DNA of 9,973 bases from a virus (lineage: Duplodnaviria > Heunggongvirae > Uroviricota > Caudoviricetes): positions 1 through 9,973 of IMG/VR virus record IMGVR_UViG_2645727991_000023, one strand, 5' to 3'. Positions 3,416-3,993 of the stretch are shown in pieces. The notes beneath the pieces are model-generated. The model saw nothing but the letters and a program-made list of their open reading frames with translations. It was not told the origin of the DNA and ran no database searches. A program made the translations under genes and the position numbers. How positions within the stretch are numbered: position 1 is the first letter of the stretch; each line of letters begins with the position of its first letter.

Positions 3416-3443
3416 AGAATACCTACAGGTAAACAAAAGTCAA
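3416..3443 (-). promoter_or_regulatory. Putative pR-like promoter for the Cro-like operon
   Basis: Minus-strand TTGACT (plus 3438-3443), 16-nt spacer, TATTCT (plus 3416-3421), about 25 nt upstream of the Cro-like start. Overlaps operator-like sites. Motif reading only. Confidence 0.4.
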
Positions 3444-3455
3444 TACCCACAGGTT
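3420..3455. promoter_or_regulatory. Operator-like sites between repressor and cro (OR-like): TACCTACAGGTA at 3420-3431 and TACCCACAGGTT at 3444-3455
   Basis: Two near-palindromic 12-mers of form TACC-N4-GGTA, 24 bp apart, overlapping the putative divergent promoters. Flanking inverted GGTAAACA (3428-3435) and TGTTTACC (3455-3462). Confidence 0.5.
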
Positions 3456-3490
3456 GTTTACCTTGCAGTAATCGCATCTATTATTTACCT

Positions 3491-3910
3491 ATGGACAAAT
3501 ATGAATTTAGACGACAGCAACTCATCAAAATTCGTGATGAGAAATGCGATGGTAAAGCGGTTAACGTGGCCAGAAAGATCGGGCGCGAGCCTTCTTATGT
3601 ATCAAGAATGTTGTACCCAGAGGGGAAAAAGGGAAAAAAACGGATCGCTGATGATATGGTGGAGATTATCGAAGAGTCCTTTGGGTTACCCCGGGGATGG
3701 ATGGATGGTATCGTTTCATCATCAACGAACACAGCCTCCAGTTATGAAACAAGGGTTCTAACGCCACGACAACGTATTTTTTTAGATCTCTTAGACGAAC
3801 TGCCAGAAAGTGAAGCGGATAACTTATTAAAAACTCTTGAAGAGAAAAAACAGTATTACAATATGATCTACGAAGAAATCCGTAAAAAGAAAGCACAAAA
3901 CGCATCATAG
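3491..3910 (+). CDS. DicA-like prophage repressor (HTH, CI analogue)
   Basis: 139-aa ORF. N-terminal HTH (AVNVARKIGREPSYVSRML). C-terminal ...LTPRQRIFLDLLDELPESEADNLL... resembles the DicA C-terminus as I remember it. No Shine-Dalgarno; TATTAT -10 at 3479-3484 ends 6 nt before the ATG, consistent with a leaderless pRM-type transcript. Divergent from the Cro-like gene. Confidence 0.8.
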   Translation: MDKYEFRRQQLIKIRDEKCDGKAVNVARKIGREPSYVSRMLYPEGKKGKKRIADDMVEIIEESFGLPRGWMDGIVSSSTNTASSYETRVLTPRQRIFLDLLDELPESEADNLLKTLEEKKQYYNMIYEEIRKKKAQNAS

Positions 3911-3952
3911 CTCACCAAACAACTAGTCACCAGTTAAGACACCGCAAAAAGT

Positions 3953-3993
3953 TACCCATGGGTATTTACTTTTTAAATACCTATGGGTATCCT
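3953..3993 (+). promoter_or_regulatory. OL/pL-like region: operator-like palindromes TACCCATGGGTA (3953-3964) and TACCTATGGGTA (3978-3989) overlapping a candidate promoter
   Basis: Perfect 12-bp palindrome and a near-copy 25 bp apart, same TACC-N4-GGTA family as the OR-like sites. Candidate -35 TTTACT (3965-3970), 17-nt spacer, -10 TATCCT (3988-3993), pointing into the early-left operon. Confidence 0.45.

Follow-up and report, generated by a model that had tools for sequence, protein, structure and literature searches.

Probable operators of the immunity switch in an Escherichia coli lambdoid prophage related to, yet distinct from, known switches

The DNA analyzed here, IMG/VR virus record IMGVR_UViG_2645727991_000023, comprises 9,973 bases (all of which we call the window) and represents the early part of a lambdoid prophage of E. 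coli. Our subject is a set of short palindromes on either side of its repressor gene, which stands divergently from a Cro-like gene of the YdaS family across a gap of 100 bp (3391-3490). In lambda terms, this gap corresponds to OR and the DNA beyond 3910 to OL/PL. Three genes frame the region:

2700-3125, minus strand: YdaT/CII-like gene
3109-3390, minus strand: Cro-like (YdaS-family) gene, divergent from the repressor gene
3491-3910, plus strand: repressor gene, 139 amino acids, public label "hypothetical protein"; phrog_5736, transcriptional regulator

A reading of this DNA from its letters alone (the original prediction) had proposed that four TACC-N4-GGTA sites, in two pairs flanking the repressor gene, are where the repressor binds. 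We now count five such sites and consider it very probable that they are the operators of the prophage immunity switch, with the consensus (W)TACC-YRYR-GGTA(W). Their positions have to be read against those of the promoter elements that they overlap or adjoin:

3416-3443, minus strand: PR-like promoter of the cro-like operon, TTGACT, 16-nt spacer, TATTCT; from the promoter scan, 9/12 consensus matches
3421-3416, minus strand: PR -10, TATTCT
3420-3431: OR1, TACCTACAGGTA; exact motif match, inside the PR spacer with a 2-bp overlap with the PR -10
3444-3455: OR2, TACCCACAGGTT; one mismatch, adjoining the PR -35 and ending 1 nt before the PRM -35
3457-3484, plus strand: PRM-like promoter of the repressor, TTTACC (-35 at 3457-3462), 16-nt spacer, TATTAT; from the promoter scan
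3459-3470: OR3, TACCTTGCAGTA; one mismatch, left half within the PRM -35 (TTTACC); absent from the original prediction
3486-3497: look-alike over the repressor start codon, TACCTATGGACA; a doubtful extra site
3953-3964: OL2, TACCCATGGGTA; exact match and perfect palindrome, directly upstream of the PL -35
3978-3989: OL1, TACCTATGGGTA; exact match, in the PL spacer with a 2-bp overlap with the PL -10
3965-3993, plus strand: predicted PL-like promoter, TTTACT (3965-3970), 17-nt spacer, TATCCT (3988-3993); placed by alignment to PR and from relatives

On reading the sequence, the four strings originally put forward are found where they were said to be, the palindrome at 3953-3964 is indeed perfect, and the spacing of about 24-25 bp within pairs agrees with the start-to-start distances of 24 bp (3420/3444) and 25 bp (3953/3978). 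The flanking of the repressor gene stands as well, but the arrangement in two pairs has to be amended, because OR has three conserved sites and the layout is therefore three in OR plus two in OL. A third OL site 15 bp upstream of OL2 is not present in the window sequence; only in a Rahnella locus (L023, considered below) does the left operator have three sites instead of two. The look-alike over the repressor ATG, tried as a sixth site, is conserved in no relative and probably arose by chance.

Chance has to be weighed for the whole set. The sites are short, with eight specified bases, and lie in A+T-rich intergenic DNA, as might be expected of a fortuitous recurrence or of some general feature of A+T-rich promoters that no particular protein binds. 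Yet the window contains three copies of the exact motif, TACCNNNNGGTA (TACC-N4-GGTA), where 0.04 would be expected. Allowing up to one mismatch raises the number to 8 (1.8 expected), and the two intergenic regions account for five of these. Neither count was equaled in any of 200 shuffles. The original prediction was to be given up if the motif turned up at similar frequency elsewhere in the genome. Instead, in a near-identical whole prophage (L028, 49.9 kb) the exact motif is confined to the three OR/OL places, the other ~49 kb being free of it, and in phage mEp043 (42.9 kb), an independent lambdoid, the only four exact matches all lie in that phage's own OR and OL.

A wider comparison leads to the same view. 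A scan of one genome per species gave 23 loci encoding relatives of the repressor, and searching phage records at the protein level brought in mEp043 and a few others; the counts over 25 loci given here are for the 23 genome loci, mEp043 and the window, and sites in relatives were those matching the motif with up to one mismatch. The hosts, which include Yersinia, Arsenophonus, Edwardsiella, Klebsiella, Brenneria, Leclercia, Aeromonas, Paraburkholderia, Herbaspirillum, Alcaligenes, Stenotrophomonas and a Xanthobacteraceae genome, extend over Enterobacterales, Burkholderiales, Xanthomonadales and Alphaproteobacteria. What the proteins have in common is their N-terminal ~75 residues, at 39-82% identity and with PSYVSRMLYPEGK nearly invariant. 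Relative to the repressor start codon, the motif recurs at about -72, -47 and -32: an OR1-type site lies at -71 to -75 in 23 of the 25 loci, an OR2-type site at -47 to -50 in 15 (always ending in T or C in place of the consensus A), and an OR3-type site at -32 to -35 in 20. A downstream pair with a spacing of 25-26 bp is present in 18 of 25, window included; its distance varies from 460 to 2,590 bp, the pair lying beyond whatever follows the repressor gene. Across the 25 loci (132 kb), where 1.9 exact sites would be expected, there are 70; the OR zone and the downstream pair account for 68. The center of the motif resolves to Y-R-Y-R, a pattern that the search did not impose, making the consensus a palindrome of 12-14 bp. 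The check suggested with the original prediction, conservation of the motif in phages sharing this repressor, thus comes out in its favor for mEp043 and the 23 genome loci, which share the N-terminal domain. With positions conserved across classes of Proteobacteria, in addition to the shuffles and the whole-phage counts, the notion of chance recurrence is effectively refuted, and we give it practically no credence.

Two kinds of natural experiment bear on what reads the sites. The first is a cassette swap. Phage vB_EcoS-640R1 shares both flanks with the window, on the side of the YdaT-like gene and from about window position 4005 onward, and has a different cI/dicC cassette between them; no TACC-N4-GGTA was found in its OR or OL. 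Nor was any found in the DicA/DicC immunity region of the Qin prophage. The motif is thus specific to the cassette: it is seldom seen in the rest of the phage and disappears where another cassette takes over, which is a further count against chance. The second is covariation. In the two most divergent relatives, from Rahnella (L023) and Ewingella (L025), the recognition helix of the repressor has SVISR or TVISR, not SYVSR, and the operators read TACT-N4-AGTA, a symmetric change in both half-sites at unchanged spacing (24/15 bp in OR and 25 bp in OL):

L023, 2409-2459 and 4515-4574: TACT-N4-AGTA sites
L025, 2403-2453 and 3732-3768: TACT-N4-AGTA sites

This covariation supports the view that proteins of the cassette read the sites, and that repressor and Cro would bind them sequence-specifically and repress PR and PL. 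It also speaks to the idea that the sites are bound by a host transcription factor and not by a phage protein, which we find scarcely credible: the motif stays with the cassette in hosts that range over Escherichia, Aeromonas, Paraburkholderia, Stenotrophomonas and Xanthobacteraceae, and it changes together with the cassette proteins. We know of no E. coli factor with this consensus, no search for one having been made.

What the covariation cannot do is separate the repressor from Cro. The Cro-like gene is kept divergently in most loci, and the putative recognition helix of its product changes from SIGYLRKA to SVEYLRKA in exactly the two loci with TACT-N4-AGTA operators. Because the Cro-like protein co-varies with the operators as the repressor does, the sites cannot be assigned to the repressor alone, and one might suppose that they are read only by the Cro-like YdaS-family protein (3109-3390), the 139-residue protein binding something else. 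We judge this very unlikely. Five Klebsiella loci (L006, L008 and L010-L012, around 2428-2480) have no divergent Cro-like gene, yet they retain the -73 site in 5/5, the -33 site in 3/5 and the downstream pair in 4/5. Moreover, the positions of the sites are fixed relative to the repressor ATG, and lambdoid switches, including that of CP-933P, which contains a YdaS protein, share their operators between both proteins (PMC8630535). Thus, since the Klebsiella loci keep the sites without Cro and the sites stay in register with the repressor ATG, the repressor is supported as a reader. The original claim that these are the repressor's binding sites fares accordingly: it stands insofar as the sites travel with the protein's DNA-binding domain, and it is qualified in that the Cro-like protein co-varies too. 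The Klebsiella loci, where the same head is joined to an S24 tail and the gene adjoins a terminator-like hairpin and T-run, seem to represent an element of another kind that employs the same operator. The repressor locus in them sits at the apparent end of the element.

The geometry is that of a lambdoid switch, as the original prediction had it. The sites overlap promoter elements on both sides: the three OR palindromes overlap the scanned elements of PR and PRM, and the motif is repeated at the early-left promoter. The PR side, read on the minus strand, aligns with the OL side, read on the plus strand, over ~50 bp. In the relatives, the TCAA after OR2 (the TTGA of the PR -35) is invariant, -10-like hexamers occur at similar distances from the repressor ATG, TTGA follows OL2, and T6 of the inferred -10, TAnnnT, is invariant in 18 OL1 sites. 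The center of OR2 is ~41.5 bp upstream of the repressor ATG/+1. With the PRM -10 ending 7 nt short of the ATG at 3491, and no Shine-Dalgarno sequence to be read in front of that ATG, the repressor mRNA is predicted to be leaderless.

From this geometry a working scheme can be proposed. Dimers of the repressor would read the TACC half-sites through their N-terminal helix-turn-helix, and the Cro-like protein probably reads the same sites. OR1 and OR2, which together cover the PR spacer and -10 and adjoin its -35, would allow the repressor to shut off the operon of the cro-like, ydaT-like and replication genes. OR2 may, by analogy, also be where the repressor activates its own promoter, its position matching that from which lambda CI acts on PRM. 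Since T or C replaces the final consensus A in all relatives that have OR2, we read it as a weak site, which suggests that it is filled cooperatively from OR1. OR3, over the PRM -35, would serve for auto-repression or for repression by Cro, and the leaderless repressor message would start at the ATG at 3491. At the other end, OL2 and OL1 would act on PL with the same geometry as OR1 and OR2 on PR. PL would drive the early-left operon of ydfC, DicF and dicB and, because that operon lies downstream, would be the equivalent of dicBp.

The OL pair (3953-3989) lends itself to another explanation, which is that it is, primarily or additionally, an intrinsic terminator of the repressor transcript. 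Located 43 nt beyond the repressor stop codon, its two palindromes can base-pair to give a hairpin of 16 bp, after which comes UCCUUCUUUU; a scan scored the pair as terminator-like, and the RNA fold comes to -22.9 kcal/mol (z = -6.0). The Klebsiella loci in which the pair lies ~200 bp after the repressor gene also have T-rich tails. However, a hairpin of this sort arises wherever a palindrome is present twice, and most relatives lack the T-rich tail (e.g., L003, L005, L007, L014, L016, L017 and mEp043). In the window itself, UCCUUCUUUU is an interrupted U-tract, and only 5 of the 16 hairpin pairs are G-C. The same sequence and geometry are found, moreover, at PR, where no transcript would need terminating, and a terminator as sole function leaves the sequence identity of OL and OR unaccounted for. 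We therefore reject termination as the main reading of the pair, the hairpin being real and the tail not conserved, and regard a terminator role of either kind as unlikely, though with an appreciable residue of probability.

For the repressor itself, the original label, "DicA-like," is right for the C-terminal half and the genomic position and wrong for the half that reads DNA. The protein consists of an N-terminal Xre-fold helix-turn-helix (residues 1-75), a disordered linker, and a DicA-like helical C-terminal domain (89-138), and its predicted recognition helix (34-40) is SYVSRML. A Pfam search found no match anywhere in the 139 residues, including to S24 (PF00717). The NCBIfam DicA model (NF007257 / PRK09706) gives 23.9 bits against a cut-off of 101, with only residues 86-136 matching, and in BLASTP against K-12 DicA only residues 89-134 align (33% identity, E = 1e-7), the N-terminal domain showing no BLASTP similarity to DicA. 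Full membership of the DicA family was thus rejected: the model score is below the cut-off, BLASTP similarity is restricted to the C-terminal 46 residues, and Qin is without the motif. What remains DicA-like is position, the repressor gene lying 5' of the ydfC/dicF/dicB operon in the same orientation.

For the N-terminal domain, Pfam, NCBIfam and a single-sequence search of the Protein Data Bank (PDB) yielded no informative match, and in a profile search of PDB most of the signal came from the S24 domain present in relatives. An AlphaFold2 model (mean pLDDT 85.3, pTM 0.51) has helices at 3-18, 23-30, 34-40 and 54-63; past a disordered linker (76-87), two further helices, 92-103 and 106-138, make up a hairpin. 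In Foldseek, Rep of Salmonella phage SPC32H, a repressor under antirepressor control, ranks first for the whole chain (E = 6e-4). Over 66-76 columns, the N-terminal domain can be superposed at rmsd 2.2-3.9 on Xre-type proteins, namely C.Esp1396I, C.BclI, HigA and the N-terminal domain of lambda repressor, with weak E-values of 0.1-0.3. Many relatives with the same N-terminal domain carry PF00717 (S24) C-terminally, of lambda-CI-like type (E = 1e-24), and the motif accompanies this N-terminal domain with either C-terminal type, DicA-like helical or S24/lambda-CI-like.

Because the window repressor is without an S24 self-cleavage domain, its induction is more likely to go through an antirepressor than through RecA; by analogy with DicA and Rem (PMC10448788), such a route is plausible. 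A gene with a phage antirepressor N-terminal domain is found in the lysis region of the prophage (L028, 20909-21478; NZ_CP024127), and its product is a candidate inducer.

Several points weigh against the operator interpretation or limit how far it can be taken. PL matches the sigma-70 consensus at only 8/12 positions, which is why the promoter scan missed it. The conservation of the eight fixed bases in relatives is partly built in by the search criterion; that of the positions and of the center pattern is not. In co-occurrence and covariation with the motif, the Cro-like protein comes close to the repressor. The center-to-center distance between OR2 and OR3 is just 15 bp, against 23 bp in lambda, so the alternate pairwise cooperativity of lambda may not apply. 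Read as RNA, the OL pair forms a strong hairpin as well, and a second role could exist. Finally, everything said of mechanism is drawn from sequence and comparison.

As to what the operator interpretation would mean, it provides a concrete map of operators and promoters for an unannotated repressor upstream of an operon with toxic cell-division inhibitors, DicF and DicB. The switch is also a clear example of domain shuffling, with one DNA-reading head and its operators joined to two induction modules, and leads one to predict cross-reactions in immunity, e.g., with phage mEp043. A broader generalization is possible, and we offer it only tentatively: the N-terminal domain may represent a helix-turn-helix family unmatched in Pfam whose operator and layout of three OR and two OL sites are conserved in prophages of Gamma-, Beta- and Alphaproteobacteria, and whose C-terminal partner, through free recombination, is either a self-cleaving S24 domain or one of DicA-like type that is probably under antirepressor control. 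Were this so, mEp043 and the E. coli prophage would form one cross-reacting immunity group despite unrelated means of induction; the dicBF cell-division-inhibitor operon would be governed through these sites, and not by DicA, in ~15% of complete E. coli genomes; and the OL pair would have the added role of ending the repressor transcript. The conceptual gain is modest, since the logic of the switch is textbook lambdoid. In sum, this is a well-supported operator prediction for a widespread, uncharacterized immunity type, of a kind of switch already known. The literature searched offered nothing relevant on these operator strings or on the operators of mEp043, but coverage was incomplete and an earlier description is possible.

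The setting of the switch is as follows. A full-length prophage of ~48 kb in strain 14EC001 is 97.8% identical across the whole length of the window and is inserted between rspB and ydfJ, which is the Qin site; over the immunity region (a 1.2-kb query, window 3050-4250), identity to 14EC001 is 99.8%. Defined by at least 80% of that query, the immunity-region place is found in 822 of 5,426 complete E. coli genomes. Outside the switch, the window has the following features:

793-1539, minus strand: DnaC/IstB-like loader
1546-2634, minus strand: replication initiator
4608-4826, plus strand: ydfC
5168-5219, plus strand: DicF small RNA, between ydfC and dicB (Rfam RF00039, 75 bits)
3' of DicF, plus strand: dicB, its position inferred from the annotation of L001
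5864-8337, plus strand: exonuclease, frameshifted
8407-8658, plus strand: xis
from 8678, plus strand: int

The exonuclease differs from the intact gene of NZ_CP024127 (824 amino acids) by a 1-bp deletion at ~7571, which splits the open reading frame (ORF) into 5864-7738 and 7558-8337; either it is a pseudogene or there is a sequencing error. Two ORFs overlap on opposite strands, 4180-4536 (plus; phrog_21318) and 4315-4521 (minus; phrog_4852 / ECs_2282 zinc-ribbon family), and public records differ in annotating either the one or the other. Within the repressor gene, an alternative frame runs from 3501 to 3761 on the plus strand, at which several database proteins (P0012, P0015 and P0018) start before joining the repressor frame; these seem to reflect frameshifts or gene-calling errors in copies of the repressor gene elsewhere.

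Among known systems, lambda is the natural standard. The likeness to its OR and OL extends to the divergent repressor and cro genes, the three imperfect OR palindromes over PR and PRM, the second set at PL and the OR1-OR2 spacing of 24 bp, and relatives of the window repressor have an S24 C-terminal domain of lambda-CI type. Lambda OR2 is centered near -42 of the repressor promoter, similar to OR2 in the window, and it is from the OR2 position that CI activates PRM; the cI mRNA is leaderless. However, the window operator has a different sequence and a shorter core (12-14 bp vs 17 bp), OR2 and OR3 are 15 bp apart rather than 23 bp, there are only two OL sites, the window repressor has no S24 domain, and the equivalents of CII and Cro are of the YdaT and YdaS families.

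In the Qin prophage, the DicA/DicC switch controls dicBp (Bejar and Bouche; Yun et al. 2012, PMC3441716; Ragunathan et al. 2023, PMC10448788). Qin and the window prophage share the chromosomal site rspB/ydfJ, the downstream ydfC/DicF/dicB operon, a short repressor with no cleavage domain and with a homologous C-terminal helical domain, and a gene with an antirepressor domain in the prophage, as in the Rem/DicA paradigm. They part ways in the N-terminal domain of DicA, to which BLASTP finds no similarity (the window protein failing the NCBIfam DicA model), in the immunity region of Qin, which carries different repeats and no TACC-N4-GGTA, and in Cro, which is YdaS-like in the window and not DicC.

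CP-933P, with its PaaR2/YdaS/YdaT switch (Jurenas et al. 2021, PMC8630535; PMC9986795), offers the parallel for the other proteins of the cassette. There, the footprints of repressor and YdaS overlap, the repressor (paaR2) mRNA is leaderless, and a copy of the operator is present at PL (PMC8630535). The window matches it in having a YdaS-type Cro, a YdaT-type CII, a repressor gene predicted to be leaderless, and operators repeated at a PL-like promoter. The binding site of CP-933P YdaT, the CII equivalent, is the inverted repeat TTGATT-N6-AATCAA (PMC9986795), and TTGATTTTCATGAATCAA at window 3115-3132 is an exact instance of it, against 0.06 expected. This repeat extends across the YdaT-like start codon and the end of the Cro-like gene. 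In contrast, the repressor protein of CP-933P is another one, its operator is an 18-bp palindrome with the half-site consensus GTTTAGTAA, and the window has no toxin-antitoxin cargo downstream of its repressor. In its operator sequence and its N-terminal domain, the window switch differs from lambda, Qin and CP-933P alike.

For the architecture of the repressor, SPC32H Rep (PDB 5d50, 5d4z) is comparable in combining a helix-turn-helix with a helical C-terminal domain and in being inactivated by an antirepressor, but sequence identity is only 16% and the TM-score only ~0.45. Phage mEp043 differs in having a lambda-like backbone with N, cII and O and a cI of 228 residues, against 139 in the window, relatives of that length carrying the S24 domain; it shares with the window prophage the N-terminal domain (76% identity over residues 1-72), together with the motif and its geometry in both OR and OL.

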